From a virus (lineage: Duplodnaviria; Caudoviricetes): a stretch of DNA of 51,073 nt. This document shows, in pieces, positions 899-50,442 of the stretch. The notes beneath the pieces are model-generated. The model searched no databases. It saw nothing but the letters and a program-made list of their open reading frames with translations, and was not told where the DNA came from. The stretch is taken from positions 1 to 51,073 of the IMG/VR virus record IMGVR_UViG_3300037293_000449. One strand, written 5' to 3'. A program made the translations under genes and the position numbers. Each line of letters opens with the position of its first letter. Position 1 is the first letter of the stretch.

Positions 899-970
899 GG
901 GGAGTGCCAGGGCGTCGTGCCAAGGCCTCGACGAGCATCGTGCTCGCAGGTGTTTCAGGTAACGATGATC

Positions 971-1159
971 TTAGGCTGGGCAGTACATCGTCTGGGAAAA
1001 TCGCACCACATCTTCACGCTTGTAAAAGACTCGGCGAGTGAGGTGCTTATGAGCCGGGAGTTTATCCCTGAACTTTCCAGTGTAGCGCCAGAAACGCAGC
1101 GTCTCGGCAGACAAGCCCAGGATTTGCGCAGCTTCGCGGGGGTTCAGATATTCCGACAT
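971..1159 (-). CDS. xis: Excisionase / recombination directionality factor (MerR-like HTH)
   Basis: 62 aa, YLNPREAAQILGLSAETLRFWR...RVFYKREDV; lies next to attL. Confidence 0.8.
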   Translation of the reverse strand: MSEYLNPREAAQILGLSAETLRFWRYTGKFRDKLPAHKHLTRRVFYKREDVVRFSQTMYCPA

Positions 1160-1338
1160 TTATTTTTCCTTTTGTACGCGTTGAGTTTGCAAGCCAGGGT
1201 CTCTACCCCCGACTTGTCAATTCACGGTAATTGTTTGGAAAGTGGCCGTCAAGGCGCAGCAGCAGACTTTTCATAGTATGCTAACACCATACCTTTAATA
1301 TCTAACGATCTATTAAAAGCATACTGTTTCATGGACAT

Positions 1339-1415
1339 AAAAAAGCCCCGACAGGTATGAGAGAGACTGTCAGGGCTACATGATTGAAGGAAAAAGGAGG
1401 TAAACCCTCAACCAT
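1339..1415 (-). ncRNA. Putative ~77-nt two-hairpin antisense sRNA with anti-SD loop
   Basis: Extended -10 TG-T-TATAAT at 1429..1421 (-); 11-bp stem with loop UUUACCUCCUUUUU; 11-bp stem with loop UCUCUCUCAUAC followed by a U-tract. The second stem also serves as the primase terminator. Confidence 0.6.
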
Positions 1416-1474
1416 AACTAATTATAACATAGCAGATTATATAGTGTGTAGTTTTTACTCTTTTTGTTATCAAA

Positions 1475-2773
1475 TTATAGCGTATTTATGTGCAGGTCTC
1501 CGATTTCGTTTTGAGCCTTGAAGCCGTTAGTGCCAGGTTTGTGTTTGATGCGAGCCATCACAGTTGCGCCGCTAGCCTTAATTACATCCTGAAGTTCTTC
1601 CATAGGTGTCTTAGTGGCCTTCGCGATCTTCTGGATGGTTGAGTTGCTGATCTTGATTGCCATGTCGCTATTACCATCACCATAAAGTCTATGCCAGAAG
1701 TGCCGCCCGGCATGATCACCCGACATGACTTGAAGTTCCATTAGTACAGATGCGCCACCACTCTTTGTGGGTTTGCTGTTGAATGACTTGAACTTGATCA
1801 TTGCGTCGTGGGTTGGCATTGCTTCCGTCGATTCCGACTTTTTTACGACAATAGTGGTATCGACCTGCTTCTTGAACTTCCTGCGAATTGAGTTGATGTG
1901 GGACTTCGCGAAGATTTGGCATGAACGCCATGCAGCAGCATCTTGTGACTCGCCAGGTCGCGGCCTGTTTCGTGGGTATTGCATGTCGCGGAAGTACGGA
2001 TCGTCTGAGTGTTCAGTGTTGTCGACCTCGAATAACCTCCTGGCGATCTCCTCTTCTGTAGCTGAGGTGATCATTCCGCCGACAATTCGATTGAGTTCGT
2101 AAGAGCGTCCACGGGCTCCGGTATTGCCAGTTGCTTTGCGTGATGCTCCAGGCTTGTACATCATGCTGAGTCCGTAGCTCGACTGCTGAAGCTTCAGCTC
2201 AAGCACTTCGACAGGGTTGCCAGGGTTGTAAAAGCTGATTGCATGAGCAAGGCGATCAGGATGCGCGGTGTAGACGTAGTAGCACTGCGATGGAACCCTC
2301 CAGCAAGGGTCGATAGCGCGAAGGAGTCTGCCATCCAGAAAGTCGTCTAGGGTCTCAAGCATCGCTGCGCAGATCGAATTGTGCTCTTCGTGAAAGTAGG
2401 GTCGGTCAGGAGTGATTACCACACGGAACCTTGGCGCGCTTAGGGTGTGGCTGTGGCTCGTATAGAGGAAGTGCTCAAGACCCAAGTCAAGGAGCGCGTC
2501 CTCGATCTCTTCAAGCGCGATCATGTCGTCGTCATACCCCTCACCAAGTTTCTGGTCGATGTCGAAGATGATCAAAGAAGACGAGATCACATTGAGGTCA
2601 CTGCGCGCAGGGATGTTAAAACTGGCTGGTACGAACGTCATTGCATTCGTTTTCTCGGCCAAAACCTTTGGCTGTTCAAAGTGCTTTTCGAACAGCATTT
2701 TTAATGAGTCAGCTGACTTGTTCGAAACGTAGTTCGTTGAAGCAGTCGTCTGTGTTGCATATCTAATGGTCAT
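1475..2773 (-). CDS. AEP-superfamily primase fused to a C-terminal DUF669-like (SSB-like) domain
   Basis: IIFDID and YTSHSH...PRFRVV primase motifs; C-terminal KPTKSGG..LMELQVMSGDHAGRHFW...NEI resembles DUF669. Confidence 0.65.
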   Translation of the reverse strand: MTIRYATQTTASTNYVSNKSADSLKMLFEKHFEQPKVLAEKTNAMTFVPASFNIPARSDLNVISSSLIIFDIDQKLGEGYDDDMIALEEIEDALLDLGLEHFLYTSHSHTLSAPRFRVVITPDRPYFHEEHNSICAAMLETLDDFLDGRLLRAIDPCWRVPSQCYYVYTAHPDRLAHAISFYNPGNPVEVLELKLQQSSYGLSMMYKPGASRKATGNTGARGRSYELNRIVGGMITSATEEEIARRLFEVDNTEHSDDPYFRDMQYPRNRPRPGESQDAAAWRSCQIFAKSHINSIRRKFKKQVDTTIVVKKSESTEAMPTHDAMIKFKSFNSKPTKSGGASVLMELQVMSGDHAGRHFWHRLYGDGNSDMAIKISNSTIQKIAKATKTPMEELQDVIKASGATVMARIKHKPGTNGFKAQNEIGDLHINTL

Positions 2774-2821
2774 TTGCTCTTTCCTTTTCTTTTGAGGCTC
2801 TCTCTTGCCTCCATGTTCCCA

Positions 2822-2850
2822 GTATTAGAAATGAGCAAATGTTGTTGCAA
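2822..2850 (-). promoter_or_regulatory. Putative sigma70 promoter of the primase gene
   Basis: TTGCAA-17 nt-TAATAC(T) on the minus strand; spacer contains TTTGCTCATTT. Confidence 0.45.
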
Positions 2851-2982
2851 CTACTTTTTTATTTATTTGGGCTGGCGAGAGCTTAGGACGGCTATTGAGT
2901 GTGTGTCTAACGTGTTTCTGCGCTGAGCTCAGCTTCAAGGGGGTTCACAAAAAGTTTTTCTTAGTCATGCTTGGTTTTGAGT

Positions 2983-3043
2983 CACCCCACCTACCTATCG
3001 TCATTTCTTTCTTCTTCTATATAGAGAGCTAGTAGATGGGGTG
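2983..3043. other. Candidate replication origin A (palindrome around an AT-rich core)
   Basis: CACCCCACCTAC...GTAGATGGGGTG (11/12 inverted match) flanking an AT-rich spacer, between the divergent primase and origin-binding helicase genes. Confidence 0.45.
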
Positions 3044-3147
3044 GTGGAACAGTAAAAACACTTGGTTCAGAGAAACGCTTTTGACCTGTCCCTGTAAGAT
3101 GAATGTATACCTCATTTAATTATTTAGTCTATTTTCATCGTGGCATC

Positions 3148-3177
3148 TTGTATCAGTGTTTGCTCATTTTGGATACT
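3148..3177 (+). promoter_or_regulatory. Putative sigma70 promoter of the helicase gene
   Basis: TTGTAT-18 nt-GATACT; spacer contains TTTGCTCATTT. Confidence 0.45.
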
Positions 3178-3224
3178 GACTACATCAGGGGAATGAGAGA
3201 GCCCCTAAATAGAGGAAACACAAT

Positions 3225-5564
3225 ATGAATAATGCAATTTCTACACAATCAGTCATCATCGACAACAACAAAAATGCTTTGGAATCTGCTCTTGAACTTA
3301 GAGAGTACAAAAACACTACCCGCCTGATGTCTATCGATGGCGATGTACTGAACGCTGTCTCAGTAGCTTATAAAACAGCTTCTGGTCTCCACAGCGCCGA
3401 TGCTGGTCAAATCACTCGTTCGATCTACACGATGTCGAAAATCGCAATCGCCCTGATGATCGTGAAAGCTGACAGCAGCGACAAAGCTTTCGACGCAGCA
3501 GCCTTCGAAATCGCTCGTGATGTTTTCGTCTCCGGCAAAACCCAGGATAAGGCCCATGCTCTCGCTGAAGCAACTGGTCGCACCCAGGCTGCTTGCGAAT
3601 CAATGATCAATAGCAAGCTCGAATTCCTCACCAGCAGGATGAACTCAAAAACCAACGCGCTGACCGACACTGGCATCTCTACTGAGACCCCAGAAGCCAT
3701 TCGCGACATCATCCTGGCAGACGGTGGCAAATACCTGATCAGCCTGCCTACCGGCGAGGGCAAGTCGACCATCATCAACGAGCCAATCCTCAAGCAATAC
3801 ATTGCAGCAGGTAAGAAAGTCCTGGTCATCTCCCACAGGCGCTCAATCAACAAAGCCTTGGCTAACATCGACGGTATTGTGAGCTACGACGAGTGCGATC
3901 AACCTGAAGTCCTGCTCAACGCCAAGGGTCTGAAGATCGTCGTTAACTCGCTCAACTCACTCAAGTTCAAACGCTTCATCGCGAGTGTCGACCTGGTGGT
4001 TATCGACGAGGCATCCCAGGTGATCTCCCACGTCCTCGGCGGCGAAGTCAAAAATCGCCAAGCCGTATGGGAAACCCTTAATTTTGTCGTCAAAAACACC
4101 CCGAGCGTCATCATGTCTGACGCTGACATCGACGCACGCTGCGCTGAAATGATCGGGCCTGGCTACAAGCTGTTCAAGAAGCCTGCAGCTCACTCTGGAA
4201 TTACTGTGAAGACCGGTGACATCAACCATGTGCGTGCCCTGGCCGTCGCGTCAGCTTGCAAGACACCGACCCTGATCGCCTGTGACGCAGTGAAAGAAGC
4301 CCTGGCTCTCGCAAAGTCGATTGAAAAGCAAGGTGGGCCAGCAGCGCTCGTAATCACTGCTGACAATGCCTTGTGGCCGGAGCAAGCGGCGTTCATCGCA
4401 AACCCAAACGGCACGAATCACCAAGTCGTCATTTACAGCCCAGTGATCACGTCAGCGCTATCGATCACCTCTGGTCACTTCAAAGCTCACTACGGCGTTT
4501 TTCAGGGGCAGGTCGTGCCAAGTGACGCGATTCAGATGCTTCGTCGTGACCGCACCGCCAAGAGCTTCGTGGTGGGCATTAAGCAGTCGATGTACAGCAA
4601 GTCTGAGGCCGTCGAAGCGACGTACAAGTGCAGCCCGATTGCTCTCGATGATCTCGTTCCACATCTGAAAGCTGACACCTTCGTCCCGGTAGTTTTTATC
4701 CGCGACCCTGACAAATCAGATGAAGAAAATGATGCTGCGATCAATGAGGCTCAGGCTGATGCCAAGAAGGCGTTTGACGCAGCCCAGAGCGCCAAGCTTC
4801 AAAGATTGATCAGCGCTGAGGTTGCGTCCATCAACTTCCGCTTTGTTGAATACGGGCATCGCAAAAACGAGGCATGGCTGCGAGACAACATCCAGTCGGC
4901 ACTTCCAGCAAGCCTGCTCGCACGTGGCTTTGAGGTTGAAGTTCTTGAGCATGACGATGACCTATCTCTGGCCGGATTCAAAGCAGATAGTCAGTCCCGC
5001 AAGGCTGTTAAGCGTGAAGTAGCCAAAGGCCTCAACCACGCCGTCAAGGCTGACCCAGTGACTGCTCAGCGTGTTCAAGAGTTCGGCTCGGTAAATGAAC
5101 AGGAATACTTGGAGGCGTCTCGTGCAAGGGCGATTGAGGTGATGAAGGTATCGGACTTTGATCTGGATGACGCGATGATCTGGGGACATGGCGAAGGTGA
5201 ATCCAAAATCATCAAATTCCGCGAACTGATGAGCACCACTGAAGCCCTTGGTGCAACAGATGATCGCAGCTCGAAAAAGGTAATGTCTCTGCTGAAGCCC
5301 GCGCTTGAAACAATGTCTACCAGCAACGCCTGGTCTGGCATAGAAAGCGTTGCACTGTTCGACAGCCTCAACACCATTCGCACTGACGTGCTGACAGTAG
5401 GCATCAGGATTAGCTCTGCAAAAAGCGATCAAGCCAAGAAGGCGGACATAACGAAGATCTTCAGTCAGTTCGGACTTGTCGTCAAAAAGCACGAGACAAC
5501 GAACAAGCAGTTCTTCTACACCGTTAGCCCGAAATCACTGGCTCAAATGACACGATACATCTGA
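3225..5564 (+). CDS. SF2 helicase, replication origin-binding protein (UL9/CyRepA1-like)
   Basis: Walker A LPTGEGKST, ISHRRS, Walker B VIDEASQ, MSDAD, IYSPVITSALSI, QMLRRDR. Confidence 0.75.
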   Translation: MNNAISTQSVIIDNNKNALESALELREYKNTTRLMSIDGDVLNAVSVAYKTASGLHSADAGQITRSIYTMSKIAIALMIVKADSSDKAFDAAAFEIARDVFVSGKTQDKAHALAEATGRTQAACESMINSKLEFLTSRMNSKTNALTDTGISTETPEAIRDIILADGGKYLISLPTGEGKSTIINEPILKQYIAAGKKVLVISHRRSINKALANIDGIVSYDECDQPEVLLNAKGLKIVVNSLNSLKFKRFIASVDLVVIDEASQVISHVLGGEVKNRQAVWETLNFVVKNTPSVIMSDADIDARCAEMIGPGYKLFKKPAAHSGITVKTGDINHVRALAVASACKTPTLIACDAVKEALALAKSIEKQGGPAALVITADNALWPEQAAFIANPNGTNHQVVIYSPVITSALSITSGHFKAHYGVFQGQVVPSDAIQMLRRDRTAKSFVVGIKQSMYSKSEAVEATYKCSPIALDDLVPHLKADTFVPVVFIRDPDKSDEENDAAINEAQADAKKAFDAAQSAKLQRLISAEVASINFRFVEYGHRKNEAWLRDNIQSALPASLLARGFEVEVLEHDDDLSLAGFKADSQSRKAVKREVAKGLNHAVKADPVTAQRVQEFGSVNEQEYLEASRARAIEVMKVSDFDLDDAMIWGHGEGESKIIKFRELMSTTEALGATDDRSSKKVMSLLKPALETMSTSNAWSGIESVALFDSLNTIRTDVLTVGIRISSAKSDQAKKADITKIFSQFGLVVKKHETTNKQFFYTVSPKSLAQMTRYI

Positions 5565-5698
5565 TGTATCAAGCGCCAAGGAAGGCGCTGCAATATACCC
5601 AATATAAATATTTTGACAAACTTGCTAAGCGCTATTGAACGGCCAAATGCTCATATTTATTATGGAAGGTATAGCAAGAATAAAAAGGAAAAGGCTAT

Positions 5699-6358
5699 AT
5701 GACCGCTTTTATTGATATCTCGCAACATCAAATTGATATGGGGGAAGTTGACGAGGTAAGGGCTTGCCTGTTGAAACCATGGGGGTTTAGGGAGCTCGAC
5801 CGAGGTCTTTTATTTAGCATCGCCCAGACATGCCTGCATGCGCTCCACAAGGTGCCTTGGAATGATTACAACGCACAGCATTACAATGGACGTGTCGTGA
5901 CAGTCGAAGATGTAATTTTCCTTCCTGACCTTCCGCCAGTCCCGAAGCCTTATCGGAGTTGGCCCGAAGCATTCATTATGATTTTTGGCGGTCTGCAGGA
6001 GTGCGAATACGAGCCGAAGGAACAAAAGCTCAGGTACGTCGTTGAGCACACATACCAACCTGACTCTGTTGATCCGAACAACCCGAAGATCGTGTTCGAA
6101 ATCAAAGGTGTCATTCCTACATTGGTAGATGCAAAGAAGTACAGAGCTGTTGCGGAACAGAATGGCGTGCACATTATCTTCATCCTTCAAGAGAAAGGGA
6201 TTATCTGCCCCTGGTCAAGGCCTCGCAAAGATGGCACCAGGATGACCCAAGAGGAATGGATTTCAAAGGAGCGTTTTGAATACTGTTACCAAGGCGAAGA
6301 AGAGCTGTTCAGAGCAACCGACAAGTACAAGAAGCTCGTAGCAACATTCGGAAAGTAA
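5699..6358 (+). CDS. T7 endonuclease I-like PD-(D/E)xK nuclease / junction resolvase
   Basis: HTYQPD...FEIKG...DAKKY...IIFILQ...RKDGTRMTQEEW parallels the T7 gp3 motif order. Confidence 0.65.
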   Translation: MTAFIDISQHQIDMGEVDEVRACLLKPWGFRELDRGLLFSIAQTCLHALHKVPWNDYNAQHYNGRVVTVEDVIFLPDLPPVPKPYRSWPEAFIMIFGGLQECEYEPKEQKLRYVVEHTYQPDSVDPNNPKIVFEIKGVIPTLVDAKKYRAVAEQNGVHIIFILQEKGIICPWSRPRKDGTRMTQEEWISKERFEYCYQGEEELFRATDKYKKLVATFGK

Positions 6359-14696: not shown

Positions 14697-15644
14697 TCAT
14701 TGGGTTTTTTGTGGTTTGGGTACCTTTGTTTTTTTGATGATGTCGGCAGTGTCACCGAAAACTGTCTGGTCGCTACGTAGAAGAATATTTCGGTTGAGCA
14801 ATTCAGCAAAGCTAACGTCCACCTCCATAACACCCACACCATACATGTCCGAATCATTGATCATGTAGGCCATGGTTGGAGATATAGGGAAGTAGAAGTC
14901 CGTATTTTCTGGCGGCACTCCATTAGGTTCGCAATCAAGGACATCAGGGTGGACGTTGATCACTGGATTGTCGCTAGTTAAGAATGGTGTGTCCGTTTTG
15001 TTGACTAACCATACAACATTTTTACGGTAGTAAAATCGGTCAATGCTGCAGCCAACATTAACCCCGAAGATTATACTTAAAAACCACCAGTTCTTATTGG
15101 TCAAGTCGAAAGCAGAATCCCCACTTAGTTTCATAGCCTGTGCAAAAGTATCTCGAAAAAATTTCGTTCGCGTAAATTGATGCCCGATATAGCTATGAAA
15201 ATTATGCCTGTTTTCGATTGAGTTCAGAATCGATAGCTTGCCATTCCGAAGGGCGTCCAGTATTGGTTTAACATCGTTCTCAATCTTTTCATGGATGTTT
15301 TCAATAGTATTTGATAGCAGGAGTTCACGCTTGCGGATGTCTTTTTCTTCGGTGAGGACAGAAATCCGGCAGGAATGTTCGATCATTTTTTCAAGAAAGG
15401 CATTGTGGAATTCTTGGAGATCGGCGTCAGCCTTGAATATCCAGCGCTGGATGAACTCTACATCAGCATCGTTAAGTGTGCTTATTTTGTAGAAATCCAT
15501 CTCACAAGCCAACCCTTGTACGGGATAGGAGCTAACGCCCTTTCTTGTCCTACGATAAATATCGACATTATTTTTAGACCATCCTCTAAGATAATGAGCC
15601 CAAATATAGTGATTGTTGCGTTTGATCATTTCGCTTTTCAGCAC
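14697..15644 (-). CDS. DUF4238 domain protein (candidate anti-phage)
   Basis: HYIWAHYLRGW at the N-terminus, FLTSDNPV and FYFPISP; AT-rich. Confidence 0.8.
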   Translation of the reverse strand: MLKSEMIKRNNHYIWAHYLRGWSKNNVDIYRRTRKGVSSYPVQGLACEMDFYKISTLNDADVEFIQRWIFKADADLQEFHNAFLEKMIEHSCRISVLTEEKDIRKRELLLSNTIENIHEKIENDVKPILDALRNGKLSILNSIENRHNFHSYIGHQFTRTKFFRDTFAQAMKLSGDSAFDLTNKNWWFLSIIFGVNVGCSIDRFYYRKNVVWLVNKTDTPFLTSDNPVINVHPDVLDCEPNGVPPENTDFYFPISPTMAYMINDSDMYGVGVMEVDVSFAELLNRNILLRSDQTVFGDTADIIKKTKVPKPQKTQ

Positions 15645-15649
15645 TTACC

Positions 15650-16129
15650 TTACCTTCCTTGTTCGGCAATATGAGACAAATAGATGTCAACGGTATTGCT
15701 AAGCGCCTGGGCATCTTGAAGCGCACGGTGCCCTTTGCGCACGGGAAGTAGCTTCAATATCTCAGACGCAGCTTCACGACCAACAAATGACTCAATCGGT
15801 TTGACTTCAAACGTTGGATCGATGCCCGCCGCTTCGTACAGCACGTCGAGCCAGAAACAATCTGCGGGGTTGTCGGAGCACAGGGTTTTGCCGTCAAACA
15901 GGTGGTTCATCCTTTCAGCCACCTGGATAGCCGGGGTGCCTTCATTCACCAGCTGCTCACGGGTGATCTGATGCATGTCCTGCGCGTCGTAGCTCCAGTG
16001 ATCCCAGTACGAGGCTGGCTGGATCAGGGCTTGATACTCACCACCAGTGAAGACCACGGCCACTTCGATTGGGTAGCTGTCGGGCGCAATGCCGGACGCC
16101 TCGAAGTCGATGAAATGTGTTGGCTTCAT
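15650..16129 (-). CDS. DEDD(h) 3'-5' exonuclease family protein
   Basis: FIDFEASG (ExoI), SDNPAD, HRALQDA (ExoIII). Confidence 0.75.
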   Translation of the reverse strand: MKPTHFIDFEASGIAPDSYPIEVAVVFTGGEYQALIQPASYWDHWSYDAQDMHQITREQLVNEGTPAIQVAERMNHLFDGKTLCSDNPADCFWLDVLYEAAGIDPTFEVKPIESFVGREAASEILKLLPVRKGHRALQDAQALSNTVDIYLSHIAEQGR

Positions 16130-16223
16130 GCCGGTCGTCCATGCCAAAAGGACATCTTCTCTGTGGCCAGGTTTGGAGTCAAACCGCGTTGCCTGGGCGC
16201 GGGCCCGGTGATAGGTTGCCGGG

Positions 16224-29755: not shown

Positions 29756-29780
29756 AGAGGGGCCAAGGTGGCCCCTTTTT
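29756..29780. terminator. Bidirectional intrinsic terminator
   Basis: AGGGGCCA-AGG-TGGCCCCT-TTTT. Confidence 0.75.
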
Positions 29781-31035
29781 AACTGGCAAACCGAGAATCT
29801 TTTTCACGCTGCTCCTGGTATTCCCTAATCAATTCATTGAGATTTGGGAAGGTAAACCGAGGAGATCTGTTCTTGAAGCTCGCTACAATACGAAGGTGGA
29901 ATCGACATGCTGTCTCTTTATCTTCGAGTTCAATCGAGAAATCGACGGAAGCGTCAGCGTCGTTGTGCTTGAAAGGGGTCTTCGAAATATAAGAGCACTC
30001 CAGCAGTCCAATAAATTCCTGGGCGCCAAAATAATCGTCAAACTTTATGTCGCACTCTCTGTGCTCCGAATCTACTTCGTAGACTGGATCGTCGGGAAGG
30101 TGGATAGACATGTCAGATATTTTACGCATGACTACAAACTCTTTTATCATAGGGACGTAAGAGTCTGCGGCAGGCTTAGTCAAGAGCTCATGGCAGTTTC
30201 CGTGATTCATGTATTCCATCAAAGCAAACATGCAGCAATTGTTTGGAATGCATAGATAGTCTGAGAACATTTGAAGATCCAATGCCATACTGCTTGCGAT
30301 GTCTCTGCCCAGTTCCTCAATGCTGATGATTTTCATGAGATCTTCTAGATTGCGACTTGTGAATGCATGAATTAGACGAAAGATCGTCAGCTCCCTATGC
30401 AGTCTCAAATTCTTCATCATCTTTTCGCGCTTGAGTTCATCGAGGAATAGCCTGACCTTTTTATGGTCTTCACGAACACTTGGGGGTAGTTTAATTTCCG
30501 CTGAATTAATTCCGACAATCGTTTGGATTTTTTTAATTGACCAGCCTATAGCTTTGGCTATTACCATCAAGGAGCTGAGCGCAATATTACTAAATGCGAT
30601 GACTCTTTTTGCCCATGCCTCGGAGGTATACGTTCGCATGGTGATGGCAAGCTCTACGGCTTTCCTCGTGCTCTCCGCTTGAGCAGGCGTGAATTTGTTA
30701 TCGAGCTCAAGAACGTCTTCGTAGTAAAGCTCGCTCTGGCCATTTCTAGAAAGCGGAAGGTCAACATAGGCGCTATATTTGTGAAAAGCCGCTTTATCGG
30801 AAAAGTAAGAATGCAAGCTTTGTTCTAGGCCGAGCGCGCCTAGTCTGAAATTAAAGTATAAGACTTCATCAATGTGCTTTTCGTCTCCTGTTCCTTGAAA
30901 TGCGAGACGGTCATTAACAGACTTCATAGTTGTGAAGCCTATCTTGTAGAACTTGCCCAAGGGCGTGTTTAACCTCACGTAGTATAGGTGCCCGATGTTC
31001 CCCGTAGCTCCTGGCACACCTCGATTGTCTGACAT
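29779..31035 (-). CDS. Protein with N-terminal GIY-YIG/T5orf172-like domain
   Basis: GHLYYVR...YKIGFTT...VNDRL...LEQSLH; AT-rich moron. Confidence 0.6.
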   Translation of the reverse strand: MSDNRGVPGATGNIGHLYYVRLNTPLGKFYKIGFTTMKSVNDRLAFQGTGDEKHIDEVLYFNFRLGALGLEQSLHSYFSDKAAFHKYSAYVDLPLSRNGQSELYYEDVLELDNKFTPAQAESTRKAVELAITMRTYTSEAWAKRVIAFSNIALSSLMVIAKAIGWSIKKIQTIVGINSAEIKLPPSVREDHKKVRLFLDELKREKMMKNLRLHRELTIFRLIHAFTSRNLEDLMKIISIEELGRDIASSMALDLQMFSDYLCIPNNCCMFALMEYMNHGNCHELLTKPAADSYVPMIKEFVVMRKISDMSIHLPDDPVYEVDSEHRECDIKFDDYFGAQEFIGLLECSYISKTPFKHNDADASVDFSIELEDKETACRFHLRIVASFKNRSPRFTFPNLNELIREYQEQREKDSRFAS

Positions 31036-31056
31036 CTCAAGCTTCCATGATTAGTA

Positions 31057-31659
31057 TTAGATTTCCCAGCGCTGCCCATCATGATCGATGGTGATCACTT
31101 GGCAATTAGAGATGGAATTTTTCAGGTCATAAGCGCGGAACGCCCGCATGGTTTCCGAGTCAATCCGCACGGGAGACTCTACTACCAGCCATCGCACAGC
31201 CTGGATAAATTGACCGTGACCAAACACAGCAACAGTGCCAGTCATCCCGTGCAGCCTCCGCAACGATTCCCTAGCCCGCTGGATCAAACCAGCAAAAGAC
31301 TCAGTACCGGGCCCATCGACAAAATCCGGATCTGCAGACACCCAGTAGCTATCTACCCACGGTTTTCGCTCCGCAGCTGTAGTGTTAGCGCACCTGCCAG
31401 GAGATAAGTAGGTGAACTCCTCAACCGCCCAGGCCTCAACCGGCACGCCAGGAAAGCGCTGAATGGTAGGCTGAGCTGTATCCTGAGCCCGTTCAAAAGG
31501 AGACGTCACGATCAGACTCGGGGCCTGGTCGAACGAATTGGCAACAGCCCGAGCCTGAGCCCAGCCTTTCTCAGTCAGCGGAATCAGCGCCGGGTCGGAC
31601 GTAGCATTGCCAGCGTTCGCAGCACTCTCACCATGCCTCACAAAATGAACTGTCAGCAT
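31057..31659 (-). CDS. Histidine phosphatase family protein
   Basis: VRHGES.AN, LTEKG..QA, SPFERAQDTA, GHG. Confidence 0.9.
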   Translation of the reverse strand: MLTVHFVRHGESAANAGNATSDPALIPLTEKGWAQARAVANSFDQAPSLIVTSPFERAQDTAQPTIQRFPGVPVEAWAVEEFTYLSPGRCANTTAAERKPWVDSYWVSADPDFVDGPGTESFAGLIQRARESLRRLHGMTGTVAVFGHGQFIQAVRWLVVESPVRIDSETMRAFRAYDLKNSISNCQVITIDHDGQRWEI

Positions 31660-44168: not shown

Positions 44169-44343
44169 CTTGAGCTCCGAAATCTCTGTATAAGTCCATT
44201 ATATAAGGGGTTCCAGGCAGTGCAATAGCATGGGCGGGCTATTTGACATCAAACTACCTTCATATAGATTGCATTTATTTATTGAGTGGGCGAGTCCAAT
44301 TCAATATGATGTTTATAAATGAGCCATAAAAAGGAAAATAATA

Positions 44344-44790
44344 ATGGACATCAAGATTTCAGTTAATCACCAGGCTATCGCTGACGCACTTATTAAAAGT
44401 GGCGACTTGCATCGTGAAGATTGCGGATGCGGACTTTCATATGAGCATGATGAAGCACAGGAACTTCAGGAAGTTATTGATATTGCGCTGGATGTAATCG
44501 AAATTTACGGCGAAGCCGGGCTAAGGGCGCTGGCAAATAGAGCCGAAAGACGTGCGGATGAACTGGATGTAGAAGTTCGAGCGAAGCTGGCTAAGGCGGA
44601 AGCCGAGAAAGCCCTGGGTGAAGTAATCCTGTCGGAGTTCGACCAGATCGCTCTGATGAACATTGTGGGCATCATCGGCGGTGACATGGACGCCTATGAC
44701 CTTGCCACGACACTCGTCCGCAGGAAGGTCTACAGCGCTGCTGAGATGATGCGACTATCCGGTGCGCAGTTGAGACATTTACTCTCGTAA
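44344..44790 (+). CDS. Hypothetical protein
   Basis: 148 aa; AAAAAGGAAAA RBS. Confidence 0.65.
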   Translation: MDIKISVNHQAIADALIKSGDLHREDCGCGLSYEHDEAQELQEVIDIALDVIEIYGEAGLRALANRAERRADELDVEVRAKLAKAEAEKALGEVILSEFDQIALMNIVGIIGGDMDAYDLATTLVRRKVYSAAEMMRLSGAQLRHLLS

Positions 44791-45596: not shown

Positions 45597-46256
45597 ATGA
45601 AAAGTTTCAGAAGCATATTAAATGCACAACATGTAGCTCAGTTGTATCTTGAAAATAAGTCGATTAACGGCATGAGTAAGAGAGCTGGGGTGTCAGATGA
45701 ATTGACAAGGTTTGCATTCACTCTGGCACTCCGTGGCGTACATCCGAATAGCCTTGACTCTATTTTTGACTTCAGACTTGAAGACGTTGTCGGTCTCCTG
45801 CTCGCTGATAAAGAGACCACGCAGGATATGAAGGATGAATTCGATGAGTTCAGGGTTGTTTGGCGCAGGCTGCATTGCCGTGAGCGTGATCGGCGGGACG
45901 CGATTTGGCGACTGGAAGCGATAAAGCCAGGTTCAAAAACAGCTGAGCCATTTCTCGAATCTCTTGATGCAATAGCTGAGGCGGACGAGGTAGATCCGAT
46001 TGGGGAGGCCTTTGCTATGGGGATCGACGAGGTCTTCGAGATAGTCCCCGTCACGTCGGTGCCAGGCTGGATAGACTACATCGCGTGCGACGACATTCCA
46101 GAGCCGTGGTGCGAGCGCTTCTCACAAGCTAGCACTGGATCGACGGCTACGATCCGTGGGAGCTATGCGTACGACTGGGAAAAGTTTGTGCGGTGCTGGA
46201 AGGTCGAGATGGATATGATAGCTAAACACCAGTTGGCACTTGGGGAGTCGCTATGA
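45597..46256 (+). CDS. Hypothetical protein
   Basis: AAGGAG RBS; coupled to the exonuclease gene. Confidence 0.6.
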   Translation: MKSFRSILNAQHVAQLYLENKSINGMSKRAGVSDELTRFAFTLALRGVHPNSLDSIFDFRLEDVVGLLLADKETTQDMKDEFDEFRVVWRRLHCRERDRRDAIWRLEAIKPGSKTAEPFLESLDAIAEADEVDPIGEAFAMGIDEVFEIVPVTSVPGWIDYIACDDIPEPWCERFSQASTGSTATIRGSYAYDWEKFVRCWKVEMDMIAKHQLALGESL

Positions 46257-46717
46257 AAATTGTTGTGGACTGCGAATTCACACAGCTCAATGCTACCTCC
46301 AAACTTATTTCCATGGCGCTAGTTGCGGAAGACGGCCAAGAGCTCTACTTCGAGCTTAGCGATAATTACGTGATTGGCGATTGCAGTGATTTTGTTGTTG
46401 AGAAGGTATTACCACAGCTGTCAGGAGGTAGCGACTCAATATCACTGATTGCTGCAAGGCAGGAATTGTTGGCGTTCTTGGCTCGCTTCGATAATGTCGA
46501 AATCATGTCTGACGCGCCCGCATGGGACTGGGAGTTCTTCTGCGATATCGCTTACCACAACGGAAAGTGGCCAGGCAATGCATCCAACAAGCCGCTTAAC
46601 TTGATTGACATGTTTAATAATAAAAATATGCAAGGGGAAGATGCGCCGGAGCTTCCACATCATGCGTTGCTCGACGCTAGATTACTAATGAACTACTACA
46701 AGCGTCTTCTCAAATAG
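46253..46717 (+). CDS. DEDD 3'-5' exoribonuclease (Rv2179c-like)
   Basis: VVDCEFT..LISMALV, SDAPAWDW, HHALLDAR. Confidence 0.8.
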   Translation: MKIVVDCEFTQLNATSKLISMALVAEDGQELYFELSDNYVIGDCSDFVVEKVLPQLSGGSDSISLIAARQELLAFLARFDNVEIMSDAPAWDWEFFCDIAYHNGKWPGNASNKPLNLIDMFNNKNMQGEDAPELPHHALLDARLLMNYYKRLLK

Positions 46718-47864
46718 CTAGCTCTAGTTCGTCGGGAATATTTAATTGCTGTCCAGGTACATACTCAATGTACTTTCGCTTGAGCCTGCACTCCTGAGGC
46801 TTGAATAGCGCGTCAAATATAGCATCGATGAGTTCCAGAATTTCCTTGATCATCTTTTGAACTTCGTAATCCCTTGCTGTGAACTTGATGTAGATTGGCT
46901 TTCTTCTGCGCCCGTTAACTGCGATGAACTCATAGTAGTGGATTCTAATTCTTTCTTGGTCTTCGCTATCTCTTCTTGCAATTTCATCCTGAAGTTGATG
47001 AATGGTTTCTGGATCATAGTGCATTCCTTCTTGTGTAGTTAGTTTATGCCACGTAAGTCTTGAGCGTTTGAGTTGTCTTCCGCTGATGTGTTTGCCGTCA
47101 AACTCGAAGCTGATGCCTTTCGGTTGGCCTTCATCATTGAGCGTCAGTTTGATGTAGACCTTCTGCTTTCTCAGGGCCCTGACGAAGTCGAACATGTCTC
47201 CTTGGATTGCGTTGGTGGCTTCGATAGCGCCTGCAATCTTTGCGATCATCTTGTGCTTGAGCGGGAGGTCACCATCTCTGATCGATGCCTGGAGTTCTGC
47301 GTGAGAGATCGAAACGCCCCAAGTATCCTTAGGCTTTGGGGCTTTGCTCAGGTTGAAGCGATCTTCGATGCCGGACACTGACTCAAGGCTGATCGAGCGT
47401 TCGTTGCTGTCCTTGACCATCGAGAAGTCGTCATTGAGCCGGATGCGATTTGCGACGATGTGGACGTGTTGATGATCCTTGTCCTGGTGCATTACAGCGA
47501 CGTACTGAGTCGTTTCGTCGAAGCCTAGGTCTGTCATGTACTTCGTGACGGCCTGGCGCCACTGTGAGGTTGTTAGAGACTCACCTGGGCGCAAGGACAG
47601 CATGGCGTGGAAGACCGGTTTAATGGCCTTCTCAGAGTCGATGGCGAAGCGCCTGAGCGTCTCAACCTGGTCGAATTCGCGGATCATCTCCGAAAGGTCT
47701 GACTCGTTGCCCTGCAGGACGCCTGGCAGTGGGTCTTTGCTCATAGTGTTGAAGCTGATCGTCCGGATTCCGCTGATCTCATGGTCGTGCTTGGTACAGC
47801 CGAAGATGTAGCGAATGCGGTTCTTAAACGAGCCTGCAGATTTAGGAAAGATCTTTCCAATCAT
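46710..47864 (-). CDS. HUH relaxase (MobA/VirD2, MOBP-like)
   Basis: Motif I GSFKNRIRY, motif II VFHAMLSLRPGE, motif III HQDKDHQHVHIVANRI; intact ORF. Confidence 0.93.
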   Translation of the reverse strand: MIGKIFPKSAGSFKNRIRYIFGCTKHDHEISGIRTISFNTMSKDPLPGVLQGNESDLSEMIREFDQVETLRRFAIDSEKAIKPVFHAMLSLRPGESLTTSQWRQAVTKYMTDLGFDETTQYVAVMHQDKDHQHVHIVANRIRLNDDFSMVKDSNERSISLESVSGIEDRFNLSKAPKPKDTWGVSISHAELQASIRDGDLPLKHKMIAKIAGAIEATNAIQGDMFDFVRALRKQKVYIKLTLNDEGQPKGISFEFDGKHISGRQLKRSRLTWHKLTTQEGMHYDPETIHQLQDEIARRDSEDQERIRIHYYEFIAVNGRRRKPIYIKFTARDYEVQKMIKEILELIDAIFDALFKPQECRLKRKYIEYVPGQQLNIPDELELAI

Positions 47865-48154
47865 TTCACACCTCCAAGATTCACTTGGGCGATGTACTTC
47901 ACCTTCTCAAGCAGTTCGCTTCCTGGGCGATCCGCATTGATCATTGATGCAAGGTTCATCAACTCCCTGGCGATCTGTACGACATCCTGAGTGACTTTTG
48001 GCTTCACCTGCCCATTGGCAACGTAGTCACGGATAAACGCTCCAGCTGACTTGTAGCCTGCCTCAGTCATCTTGGCATTAAGAGTGTCTAACTCCGTTTT
48101 GTTTAGTCGTAGGGTGATGCGGGACTCTTTGGTTTGTCTCTCTATAGTTTTCAT
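47861..48154 (-). CDS. mobC: Relaxosome accessory protein (RHH)
   Basis: ITLRLNKTELDTL....AG....GAFIRD, RELMNLASMIN; ATGA overlap with the relaxase. Confidence 0.85.
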   Translation of the reverse strand: MKTIERQTKESRITLRLNKTELDTLNAKMTEAGYKSAGAFIRDYVANGQVKPKVTQDVVQIARELMNLASMINADRPGSELLEKVKYIAQVNLGGVK

Positions 48155-48511: not shown

Positions 48512-49891
48512 TTACAGGCTAACTTCTTTGGTATCGAGCATCTTGGTATCGAGGTCAGCCAAGGTGGAAAGTAGACCTCGGCACACAAAATCTTTTTCGA
48601 GGCCAGCACTGTTCAGAATCTCGGTTTCAATCTTCGTAGCAGCATCACGGATCTCTGAGAGATATGCCATTTTGTAGCCATCTGTCACGTCCACAGTCTG
48701 TCCAGCCGAATCATGGTTGCAGAGCACCTTGATGTAAAACGCACCAACACCGGCCCGCTCAGCGACTGACATGAAGCTGGCCCGCATGATTTTGCGTGGA
48801 AGATGCTGATTGATCCTGTCAGAAATCCTGCAGAGGAAGTCCCGGACATTCGACTCACTGACCTTATCCTGCTGCACTCCTGGGAAAACGTAGTCACCTG
48901 AAGAGTGCTTCATCGAGTACATCAGCTGGCAGTAAGCAGCATCGCTCAGAACAAGATGAAACTCCTTCCCATTTTTCAGGGTGTCTTCTTCATTTGTCTT
49001 GTTGCGTTCTGGAAAAACCACTGCGCGAGTTTTATGGCAAATATAGCTTCGCCGGATCTTATTGATCTCTCCAGGCCTAACTCCTGTGAAGAGCATAAAC
49101 AAAATCGCTGCCGAGACCGGCTTGAACGATGTAGGTACATCACGAAGCGGAGGGGTCTCGGAGATTTCTACACACCCCTTAATGAACTGACCCAGATCCT
49201 TTGGGTTGATCCGAATCTTATCGCGCTTGGTGGTATGCCATTGCTTGGTGTGTTTCATGATATCGACAGGGTTGTACTTGTAAATCGGCTCACCGATCTC
49301 GTTCTTATACCAGACAATCGAAAACGAAAAGATACCCCGAAGCAGGCACAAGGCTTTATTAGCAGATCGCTCCCTTGGTGGTGTAACTCGTCCATTCGGT
49401 CTGACAGCAGGGACGGTAGTCTCGTCATGGAGGTTCACAACGTCATCACTGGTAAAGCTTGAGATGGCCCTTGGGCCGTACTTCGCCTTGATGTAGTTGT
49501 TATAAGTTCGGTTGTAGTCATCGACTGTAGTCTTGGTCAGCTTCTTGCTTTTACGGCGCATGAAGTTTTCGAATGCCATGTCCAAGGTGAGGCTGTCCCG
49601 GAGAGACTTCGTTTCTTCAGCCTGCAGGATCTCATCAAGGTTCGCGTAGATCTTCTCTGCTTGCGCTCTAATCAATGGCAGTTTGGTAGTTTTGGGATTA
49701 AAAGCCTCAAGCTTGCGGCGGTGATCTTTTCCCAATACCTTCCTGACAACATAGAAGGCCTTGCCCCCAGCCTTAGTTACACGTAATACCAAGCCTTTAG
49801 TTTCAGTGTCATAAGCGAGCATATCAGCCTTACCTTCAGGGCAAACGAGTGCCTCCAGGGAAGCTTTGGTGAAGTGAATTTTCAAAGCCAC
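48512..49891 (-). CDS. int: Tyrosine integrase with N-terminal arm-binding domain
   Basis: YDTETKGLVLRV...GGKAF arm domain; LFTGVRPGEI, KNG, RKIMRASF, LCNH, VTDGY catalytic motifs. Confidence 0.95.
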   Translation of the reverse strand: MALKIHFTKASLEALVCPEGKADMLAYDTETKGLVLRVTKAGGKAFYVVRKVLGKDHRRKLEAFNPKTTKLPLIRAQAEKIYANLDEILQAEETKSLRDSLTLDMAFENFMRRKSKKLTKTTVDDYNRTYNNYIKAKYGPRAISSFTSDDVVNLHDETTVPAVRPNGRVTPPRERSANKALCLLRGIFSFSIVWYKNEIGEPIYKYNPVDIMKHTKQWHTTKRDKIRINPKDLGQFIKGCVEISETPPLRDVPTSFKPVSAAILFMLFTGVRPGEINKIRRSYICHKTRAVVFPERNKTNEEDTLKNGKEFHLVLSDAAYCQLMYSMKHSSGDYVFPGVQQDKVSESNVRDFLCRISDRINQHLPRKIMRASFMSVAERAGVGAFYIKVLCNHDSAGQTVDVTDGYKMAYLSEIRDAATKIETEILNSAGLEKDFVCRGLLSTLADLDTKMLDTKEVSL

Positions 49892-49964: not shown

Positions 49965-50049
49965 GCCTCGATGGTGAAATTGGTAGACACATCGCACTTA
50001 AAATGCGCCGCCGAAAGGTGTACCGGTTCGACTCCGGTTCGAGGCACCA
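49965..50049 (+). tRNA. Element-encoded tRNA-Leu(UAA), complete, 85 nt
   Basis: Acceptor GCCTCGA/TCGAGGC, D arm with GG, CGCA-CTTAAAA-TGCG, long variable arm CGCC-GAAA-GGTG, ACCGG-TTCGACT-CCGGT, discriminator A plus CCA. Confidence 0.95.
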
Positions 50050-50203: not shown

Positions 50204-50376
50204 GCCACTGAAAGCCGCTCACATCTGCCAGCATCTCTCCTCAGCGCTCACCATCTCTCGGCGACCTGGCAAAGATCACTCTAAACGCCTGATATGCCTA
50301 GTTTTTAAGCCCAAAAACACGTTCAAAAGCTTTCCTAAGCTCTCGACTGCTTTCCGCTGCCGATTTAGGGCAGAAT

Positions 50377-50433
50377 GACTTAAAATCCCCCGCCTGTAAG
50401 GGCGTCCCGGTTCGATTCCGGGTTCGGGCACCA
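50377..50433 (+). pseudogene. 3' half of host tRNA-Leu(UAA) (attR)
   Basis: GACTTAAAATCCCC...GGTTCGATTCC...TTCGGGCACCA; its 3' end pairs with GCCCGAA at 540; upstream sequence supplies no 5' half. Confidence 0.93.
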
Positions 50434-50442
50434 TAGATATCA

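Follow-up and report, generated by a model that had tools for sequence, protein, structure and literature searches.

Which element keeps the early genes of a prophage silent when no CI-type repressor can be recognised in it? The question is raised by IMG/VR virus record IMGVR_UViG_3300037293_000449 (positions 1 to 51,073), a provirus record whose whole 51,073-nt stretch, referred to here as the window, contains a tailed-phage prophage of ∼49.8 kb with relatives in Pseudomonas genomes. On the minus strand, between a primase-like gene and a xis-like gene, lies a short unit with a promoter-like sequence and two hairpins (1338..1450), which a preliminary description of the sequence had read as an antisense small RNA (sRNA) that could be the missing lysogeny repressor. 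Our analysis of this unit and of its counterparts in relatives indicates that it very probably specifies a real, separately transcribed RNA. Its fold is conserved and covaries, its unpaired regions are complementary to the leaders of both replication genes, and the pairing sequences differ between clades with alterations on both the RNA and the leader sides. On this sequence evidence a base-pairing repressor of the early replication-gene leaders is the function that we somewhat favour, with the excision gene probably repressed in the same manner.

The predicted RNA (∼78–82 nt; 1338..1415, minus strand) starts near 1415 and extends to a U-tract, scoring 110 bits with the covariance model (R1) that was also used to gather relatives. 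The putative promoter (1421..1450, minus strand) carries the extended −10 element TGTTATAAT (TG-T-TATAAT, 1429..1421) at the place given in the preliminary description, with five bases between it and the first hairpin, and a weak −35-like TACACA (1450..1445); a second TATAAT is found in the same region at ∼1440..1435 on the minus strand. Hairpin 1 (1380..1415) is formed by stems 1415–1405 and 1390–1380 (AUGGUUGAGGG / UUUACCUCCUUUUU / CCUUCAAUCAU), and its loop 1, UUUACCUCCUUUUU (1404–1391), is complementary to the A-rich ribosome-binding site (RBS) AAAAGGA. Hairpin 2 and the U-tract occupy 1338..1377, with stems 1377–1367 and 1354–1344 (AGCCCUGACAG / UCUCUCUCAUAC / CUGUCGGGGCU) enclosing the 12-nt loop 2, UCUCUCUCAUAC (1366–1355). 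An 86-nt stretch folds as both hairpins with a minimum free energy of −32 kcal/mol, compared with a shuffled mean of −16.3 (z = −5.53; 0 of 200 shuffles as stable), reproducing the two hairpins, their loops and the U-tract that had been described. Hairpin 2, with an 11-bp stem followed by UUUUUU, is by its sequence an intrinsic (Rho-independent) terminator and also serves as the end of primase transcripts; it was missed by a simple terminator scan because the loop limit of that scan was 3–8, whereas loop 2 has 12 nt. A promoter scan of 900–3400 returned two promoter-like sites against 2.8 expected, which is no excess over chance.

Relatives were gathered by primase protein, by primase alignment, by a DNA pattern of the loops and by model R1. 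The RNA unit is present in 34 of 39 distinct loci, with primase identities of 44–97%, and all members have unpaired loops in both hairpins, a T-run, and a −10 of the TGnTAnnnT type whose spacing is fixed. Within 16 aligned relatives TGnTA..T is invariant or nearly so and its distance to hairpin 1 is constant. Each of the first 16 relatives folds individually into two hairpins (−26 to −40 kcal/mol), as do members of clades G and H. The covariation check that the preliminary description had called for shows that the stems change by compensatory substitution: for the 16 sequences (clades A–F), 91.5% of the cells are paired as opposed to 73.6% in shuffles, with 0 of 500 shuffles reaching the observed value, and changes on both sides are seen in 15 of the 22 pairs (9/11 in hairpin 1 and 6/11 in hairpin 2), giving a covariation score of 0.494 versus 0.196. 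Pairing falls to 37–52% in a control in which the 3′ partner is slid out of register. These values come from a covariance-model alignment, which is itself fitted to the model and misplaces hairpin 1 of three sequences (L012, L017 and L021); it was used since a MAFFT alignment combined with RNAalifold recovered just 9 pairs, its stems being misaligned. The loops are more conserved than the stems. UCCUUUU of loop 1 is invariant in clades A–F, and the CUCUC core of loop 2, the T-run and the GCC/GGC base of the hairpin 2 stem are invariant in the 16 relatives.

Two further observations bear on the independence of the unit. The primase gene of clades F and H has a terminator of its own ahead of the RNA promoter, while in clade G the RNA lies 1.4–2 kb from the primase gene, with other genes between. 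It follows that the RNA must be more than the tail of the primase transcript, and the case that the preliminary description had named as fatal to its reading, a mere primase 3′ untranslated region (UTR) or terminator, is made unlikely by the conserved promoter and the separate terminators of clades F and H. Taken together, the conserved promoter, the compensatory changes and a reading frame that is not conserved point, at the sequence level, to an independent sRNA gene.

The term 'antisense' does not hold in its usual cis sense. Over the RNA, the sole plus-strand frame is a 45-codon TTG frame (1384–1521) and no gene overlap was found; a possible plus-strand gene behind AGGAGG (1394–1399) was considered and rejected, no start codon being seen at a suitable distance. 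As the opposite strand has no overlapping gene, the RNA is not cis-antisense, which leaves action in trans or, where it forms the tail of the primase transcript, in cis.

The Rfam search that had been proposed gave no family match: with release 15 (4227 models) and the whole window, no family reached its gathering threshold except tRNA at 49965–50046. A permissive search of 1250–1520 gave at best 17 bits (NmsRb, gathering 52), all E-values being at least 0.3. The sub-threshold look-alikes (NmsRb, LhrC, the Betaproteobacteria toxic sRNA and anti-hemB; 12–17 bits against gathering scores of 43–110, E 0.3–8) are two-hairpin sRNAs with C/U-rich loops. The exact loop pattern occurs in 2 of 401 sampled Pseudomonas genomes, and a reversed-pattern control in none. 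Model R1 matched 9 of 151 genomes, of which, by eye, seven are ordinary host terminators and two are real (G001, and G109, which looks degenerate). Six matches to the pattern came from metagenomes, two of them by chance (L028 and L033). No description of the RNA was found in the open-access literature, taken without supplementary files, and our best reading is that it represents a previously undescribed family of phage regulatory RNA.

The leaders to which the RNA is complementary belong to early promoters built on one plan, comprising a −35 element, a TGCTCAT spacer, an AATACT-type −10 and about six bases ending in ACAT. The primase promoter and leader (2774..2850, minus strand) have TTGCAA at 2850–2845, TGCTCAT at 2837–2831 and AATACT at 2826–2821; those of the helicase (3148..3224, plus strand) have TTGTAT at 3148–3153, TGCTCAT at 3161–3167 and GATACT at 3172–3177; and the third, of the endonuclease gene (5635..5698, plus strand), has TTGAAC at 5635–5640, TGCTCAT at 5648–5654 and TATTAT at 5658–5663. 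From there onward the primase and helicase leaders consist of a 5′-end hairpin, an A-rich stretch, the Shine-Dalgarno (SD) sequence and the start codon. Their hairpins, GAGGC-AAGAGAGA-GCCUC in the primase leader (2811–2794, minus strand; RBS AAAAGGAAA, 2788–2780) and AGGGG-AAUGAGAGAG-CCCCU in the helicase leader (3187–3206, plus strand; RBS GAGGAAA, 3212–3218), are as the preliminary description gave them. The endonuclease RBS AAAAAGGAAAAGG lies within the loop of a hairpin with stem UAUAGC/GCUAUA, and this leader has no 5′ hairpin of the primase/helicase kind. A 5′ hairpin is found in all of the 70 leaders, with 28 different stems, and GAGA or AGAG occurs in the loop of 44 of the 58 leaders from loci where the RNA was found.

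Nearly all of the leader loops fit GNRAGA (GAGAGA, GCGAGA, GUGAGA, GCAAGA), with a conserved ACAT before the hairpin at the presumed transcript start. Such loops may have a second role beside pairing, for example a tetraloop-like, protein-binding or mRNA-stabilising one. The TGCTCAT element is kept in relatives with 45–50% primase identity, the primase promoters of clade F being without it; since spacers normally vary freely, its conservation suggests a DNA-binding protein, and TGCTCAT is accordingly put forward here as a candidate operator of such a regulator. Between the divergent early promoters there is an inverted repeat (∼2982–3048), CACCCCAYCTAC ... GTAGRTGGGGTG around an A+T-rich centre (CCCCACTAC ... 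GTAGTGGGGG in relatives), which is probably a replication origin bound by the origin-binding-like helicase.

Within the window, the sequence AAAAGGAAA occurs four times on both strands together, against ∼0.4 expected, and each time 4–8 nt before a start codon, those of xis (1159), primase (2773), the endonuclease (5699) and ORF 44344; all four RBSs that had been listed as complementary to loop 1 are thus present. GAGAGAG, by comparison, occurs four times against ∼6 expected. Because the GAGAGAG and promoter counts are within chance, the case for more than chance rests on the positions of the motifs and on their conservation in relatives. An accessibility-aware scan was made over 1804 tiles on both strands, with the cost of opening structure charged in both partners. 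With the RNA's own antisense strand excluded, loop 2 finds its best partner in the window at the helicase leader loop (9 bp, −11.8 kcal/mol); the loop of the primase leader comes third (7 bp, −8.4), with a loop-1 score at that leader of −6.2. In a two-site model, in which a loop-2 site is followed by a loop-1 site, primase ranks third and helicase fifth with the same strand set aside, and these two leaders are the sole top two-site matches at real gene starts. The antiparallel order noted at the outset, with loop 2 facing the leader loop and loop 1 the RBS region, is upheld in both replication leaders.

The comparison across clades extends this. We compared the longest Watson-Crick match between unpaired RNA positions and each leader with the background of the same locus, and 24 of 29 leader tests gave p ≤ 0.05; with one representative for each of the eight clades, 13 of 15 tests did so (Fisher 1e-13; tests not independent). 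This test superseded a longest-match test with the whole RNA, in which the background was high and 7-mers are expected in about one quarter of windows. A control with reversed loops tells nothing, CU repeats being the same in either direction. The pairing sequences differ between clades, with alterations on both the RNA and the leader sides. In clades A–F, UCCUUUU of loop 1 stands opposite the RBS AAAAGGA. In clade G, loop 1 is CCUCUCUCUU (CUCUCUCUU) and the RBS in both leaders is AAGAGAGA; immediately before that RBS stands ACAACAACAA, to which the inter-hairpin linker UUGUUGUUG (..CUUGUUGUUGUG..) is matched, over 13 consecutive nt in L051. In clade H, CACCUU of loop 1 corresponds to the helicase RBS AAGGUG and the linker CUCUUGUUGUU matches AACAACAAGAG over 9–11 nt; in L062 of this clade CUCUCAC of loop 2 corresponds to the leader loop GUGAGAG. 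The clade B helicase loop UGCGAGA likewise pairs well only with RNAs carrying CUCUCGC. The RBS of the xis-like gene follows the types: most of clades A and E have AAAAGGA, and L004, L032 and L061 have AAAGAGAG. Loop–leader covariation, on which the preliminary description had made its reading depend, is thus found, and the complementarity has been kept across relatives and re-invented in several clades with different sequences; conserved or co-varying complementarity of unpaired regions, as seen here, points to a trans-acting base-pairing sRNA.

These observations are consistent with the following mechanism. The RNA would be made from its own sigma-70 promoter with the extended −10 and would end at the intrinsic terminator of hairpin 2; as the same terminator ends primase transcripts, primase mRNA would have the RNA module at its 3′ end as well. 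The helicase and primase mRNAs both begin with a hairpin whose purine-rich loop would be kissed by loop 2 (CUCUCUC...). Beyond it, at a distance of ∼10 nt, loop 1 (..CCUCCUUUUU) would mask the A-rich Shine-Dalgarno region AAAAGGA, with the inter-hairpin linker joining in the pairing in other clades. Ribosome binding would be blocked and/or the mRNA destabilised, so that primase and helicase, and probably the endonuclease and the xis-like gene product, are kept low. In a lysogen, the RNA may neutralise early transcripts, whether leaky or incoming, thereby helping maintenance and superinfection immunity, while in lytic growth it may provide negative feedback on the replication genes.

Several points weigh against this reading. 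Model R1 found no RNA unit in five loci (L040 and L052–L055) with the whole records searched, these being 14–89% complete, and the leader hairpins are kept there with loops that mostly lack GA repeats; their retention in relatives without a detectable RNA suggests that the leader hairpin has a function of its own, such as protection of the mRNA 5′ end. Single contacts in the window are short (7–9 bp), the best window matches of loop 1 are Shine-Dalgarno-like sites inside coding regions, with only 6–8 bp at the early RBSs, and the leaders do not stand out in a naive duplex scan in which stem bases are allowed to pair. Exceptions to the pairing rules occur in the helicase loop of L005 (GAAACA), in the primase loops of L008 and L022 (CGCAAGA), in clade E, where 8 bp form only with G–U pairs and p is 0.17–0.49 when unpaired positions alone are compared, and in L041, whose loop 1 UUUACGAGCAUUUU fits neither RBS. 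The switch from type I pairing, as in the window, to type II, as in clade G, is one event on the tree and, since the clades share ancestry, the Fisher value overstates independence and gives an upper bound on the strength of this evidence. Soil metatranscriptome contigs of ∼90% identical relatives bridge the primase 3′ end and the RNA region, with starts, ends and strand not readable from them; one contig stops inside hairpin 2 and one passes the terminator to 1268, which is uninformative either way. Finally, the repressive rather than activating direction is assumed because the pairing sites overlap the RBS.

How far can the data be explained without a regulatory RNA? A structured 3′ UTR and terminator that insulates the xis-like gene, its complementarity a by-product of low-complexity purine/pyrimidine runs, would account for hairpin 2 as a textbook intrinsic terminator between primase and xis, and for the location of the unit directly upstream of the xis-like gene in 19 loci, even when it is away from primase; the lack of any excess of GAGAGAG (four against ∼6) and the brevity of single contacts agree with it as well. 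A terminator, however, needs neither a conserved extended −10 nor a second hairpin with a loop more conserved than its stem, another terminator already serves primase in clades F and H, and in clades G and H loop and linker change with the leader RBSs, including non-repeat matches of 11–13 nt. We regard this explanation as unlikely. Less probable again is an RNA directed at the host, be it an anti-Shine-Dalgarno decoy or a sponge for a host RNA or protein, that would serve in lysogenic conversion or takeover. Loop 1 does hold ACCUCCUU, which we take to be the core of the 16S rRNA anti-Shine-Dalgarno sequence, and within the window it matches best to strong AGGAGG-type sites. The sub-threshold Rfam look-alikes act on host mRNAs, and many prophage sRNAs act on host genes according to the available portion of a 2025 review (PMC12197685). 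Against this, the anti-Shine-Dalgarno loop is replaced by CCUCUCUCUU in clade G and by CACCUU variants in clade H, each of which fits the phage's own leaders; host targets could exist in addition to phage targets.

A small leaderless protein, or a signal acting at the level of DNA such as a single-strand priming site adjoining the primase gene, is very improbable. An ATG at 1415–1413, at the predicted transcript start, opens 29 codons with a hydrophobic tail, and stem covariation would also be expected of a single-stranded DNA hairpin. The 29-aa protein was rejected on comparison of the relatives: the ATG is GTG in L002–L004, L010 and L011, a 1-nt loop insertion shifts the frame in L003, and L005 has a different frame and peptide. 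A priming signal would leave the promoter, the invariant T-run and the concerted leader changes unexplained. Of all these explanations, a base-pairing repressor of the early leaders is the one that we retain as the preferred reading.

Whether such a repressor is also what holds the prophage in lysogeny is a separate question. What stands of the original proposal is a conserved, independently promoted and terminated RNA with leader complementarity, while its role as lysogeny repressor is no more than a possibility. In agreement with the proposal, no recognisable CI was found: 40 frames scanned with Pfam and PHROGs (10 also with NCBIfam) contained no CI, Cro, XRE or S24-type protein, the xis-like gene being the sole helix-turn-helix (HTH) gene among them. 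It is conceivable, if doubtful, that the RNA is the primary or sole immunity repressor, with no protein repressor and with the pairing types as immunity groups. The near-consensus promoter is of a kind expected to be active in a lysogen, the targets are the replication genes and probably xis, which need to be silent there, and the pairing sequences diversify between clades like immunity specificities. There is also the precedent of P4, in which an RNA blocks the element's own replication genes in lysogeny (PMC4825925, as far as its available text goes).

Other observations fit such an exclusive role poorly. TGCTCAT, conserved in the spacers of three early promoters, suggests a protein regulator, and because most of the prophage reading frames are without annotation, a novel repressor may be among them. 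Contacts of 7–9 bp would have to silence two constitutive promoters fully at the post-transcriptional level, and five relatives have no detectable copy. Two prophage records, 2675903373_000005 (L008, clade D) and 2675903373_000007 (L019, clade B), presumed from their common leading number to come from one genome, each have their own RNA copy, and cross-pairing is predicted between either RNA and one or more leaders of its counterpart (−12.4 and −13.9 kcal/mol in a loop-only matrix), which ill fits the RNA as the sole determinant of specificity. That a lineage of tailed temperate Pseudomonas phages keeps lysogeny and superinfection immunity mainly by an RNA silencing both replication operons and the excision gene is, in our judgement, the less likely outcome by some distance.

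Comparison with known systems places the RNA near several of them. The c4 RNA of P1 and P7 is a ∼77-nt phage RNA that presents short segments in loops, pairs around the RBS of a phage mRNA and is the basis of immunity specificity (PMC12197685, available portion). The window RNA resembles it in its short, loop-presented contacts around an RBS. It differs in that c4 is cut from the transcript of its target and controls an antirepressor (ant), whereas the window RNA is promoted and terminated independently and matches the leaders of two genes, the upstream primase and the divergent helicase; moreover, the C4 model of Rfam gave no match to the RNA region even at E ≤ 10, and no antirepressor gene, as expected of a c4-type system, was recognised in the scanned frames. 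The CI RNA of P4 keeps its own replication genes off in lysogeny via two target sites (PMC4825925, available text). It is processed from the leader of its own target operon, and its effect is premature transcription termination at seqA and seqC, whereas the gene of the window RNA stands by itself at the distal end of the primase operon, and the sites of this RNA overlap the RBS, which suggests translational control; P4 is in addition a satellite, while the window element is a full-size tailed prophage. The small RNAs sar of P22 and OOP of λ, which have their own promoter and terminator, affect the balance between lysis and lysogeny (PMC12197685, available portion). Both overlap their target gene on the opposite strand, unlike the window RNA, which overlaps none and scores 13 bits with the sar model (gathering 43).

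The RNA also shares with LhrC, NmsR and the Betaproteobacteria toxic sRNA a hairpin loop with a pyrimidine-rich anti-Shine-Dalgarno motif that is followed by a terminator hairpin; those RNAs, in contrast, are chromosomal and act on host mRNAs. RsaE/RoxS are of the same type, being two-hairpin sRNAs with C/U-rich loops that mask Shine-Dalgarno sequences. Loop–loop kissing with the leader hairpin of a replication gene is known from CopA/CopT of plasmid R1 and RNAI of ColE1, which are encoded on the opposite strand and are fully complementary, and the OxyS–fhlA interaction illustrates how two-site kissing gives strength to short pairings. Compared with the plasmid copy-number RNAs, the window RNA is encoded elsewhere, has short matches only and addresses two or more leaders. 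Judged by its sequence, it would work most like c4 and P4 CI, with traits of the plasmid kissing RNAs, and is a member of none of these groups.

The genes around the RNA conform to a prophage replication and excision region. Upstream on the same strand is the primase-like/DUF669 replication gene (1475..2773, 432 aa), identified by phrog_34715 (E 2e-149), primase/helicase-primase PHROGs and DUF669; divergent from it is the helicase or origin-binding-like replication gene (3225..5564, plus strand, 779 aa; Herpes_ori_bp, DEAD, phrog_38391 at E 1e-174), followed by the endonuclease gene (5699–6358, plus strand; PHROG endonuclease match), a resolvase, the small terminase subunit and structural genes. 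The xis-like HTH_17 gene (971–1159, minus strand; RBS AAAAGGAAA, 1173–1165) lies 180 nt downstream of the terminator of the RNA and is a candidate further target. ORF 44344 (44329..44790 including its RBS AAAAGGAAA, plus strand, 148 aa) has no family match and is a weak candidate target without a leader hairpin. The intervening segment between the RNA and the xis-like gene (1215–1320, minus strand) contains repeated AGTATGC/GCATACT motifs and TTGACA boxes, and a perfect palindrome TTGACA-N3-TGTCAA is seen downstream of the RNA in L041, L060, L062 and L063; these motifs are candidate protein sites controlling excision. No cultured phage matched 600–3300 by blastn, none in the collection being close, and tblastn with the primase gave only distant matches to its C-terminal (DUF669) part in Vibrio and Pseudoalteromonas phages.

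At the right end of the prophage is a tyrosine integrase gene (48512–49891, minus strand). The prophage apparently splits a host tRNA gene of the Leu(UAA) type (anticodon loop CUUAAAA) at the anticodon loop, with the 5′ half at the left junction, the 3′ half at the right and a common core GACTTAAAA (538–590, 49965–50049, 50365–50440). A complete 85-nt phage tRNA of the same type, labelled Phe(aaa) by ARAGORN and scoring 54.6 bits with the Rfam tRNA model, is located just inside the right end and may replace the disrupted host gene; 330 bases separate this tRNA from the 3′ half of the host tRNA. Adjoining the integrase is a mobilisation module (46710–48154, minus strand) encoding a MobA/VirD2-type relaxase (PF03432, E 3e-23) and a NikA-like accessory protein (PF21983, E 3e-8). 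Minus-strand cargo genes break into the structural modules (14697–16147 and 29779–31659, minus strand; also 46253–46717, plus strand), their products being a DUF4238 protein, a DEDD-type exonuclease, a histidine phosphatase and a protein with a weak MUG113/T5orf172 match. A further gene encodes an RNase AS-like 3′ exoribonuclease, and all of these may have a role in defence or be accessory.

To our knowledge, only a few classical systems of coliphages and Salmonella phages (c4, CI, sar and OOP) have regulatory RNAs acting on the phage's own early genes. The sole Pseudomonas entry in the available portion of the 2025 review (PMC12197685) is a long cis-antisense RNA of a virulent phage. The RNA described here provides a testable model for post-transcriptional control of phage replication and excision in Pseudomonas, and its natural matched RNA/leader variants could serve as orthogonal regulators; the L008/L019 prophage pair would be useful for studying cross-immunity. 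It also offers a possible reason why prophages of this lineage show no recognisable repressor. If lysogeny were indeed RNA-based, it would be exerted through two or three short contacts per leader, and the modules UCCUUUU, CUCUCUCUU, UUGUUGUUG and CACCUU would define heteroimmunity groups. Were the RNA the immunity determinant, this would be the first RNA-based immunity beyond P4-like satellites and the secondary c4 system of P1, and would extend such immunity to ordinary tailed temperate phages.

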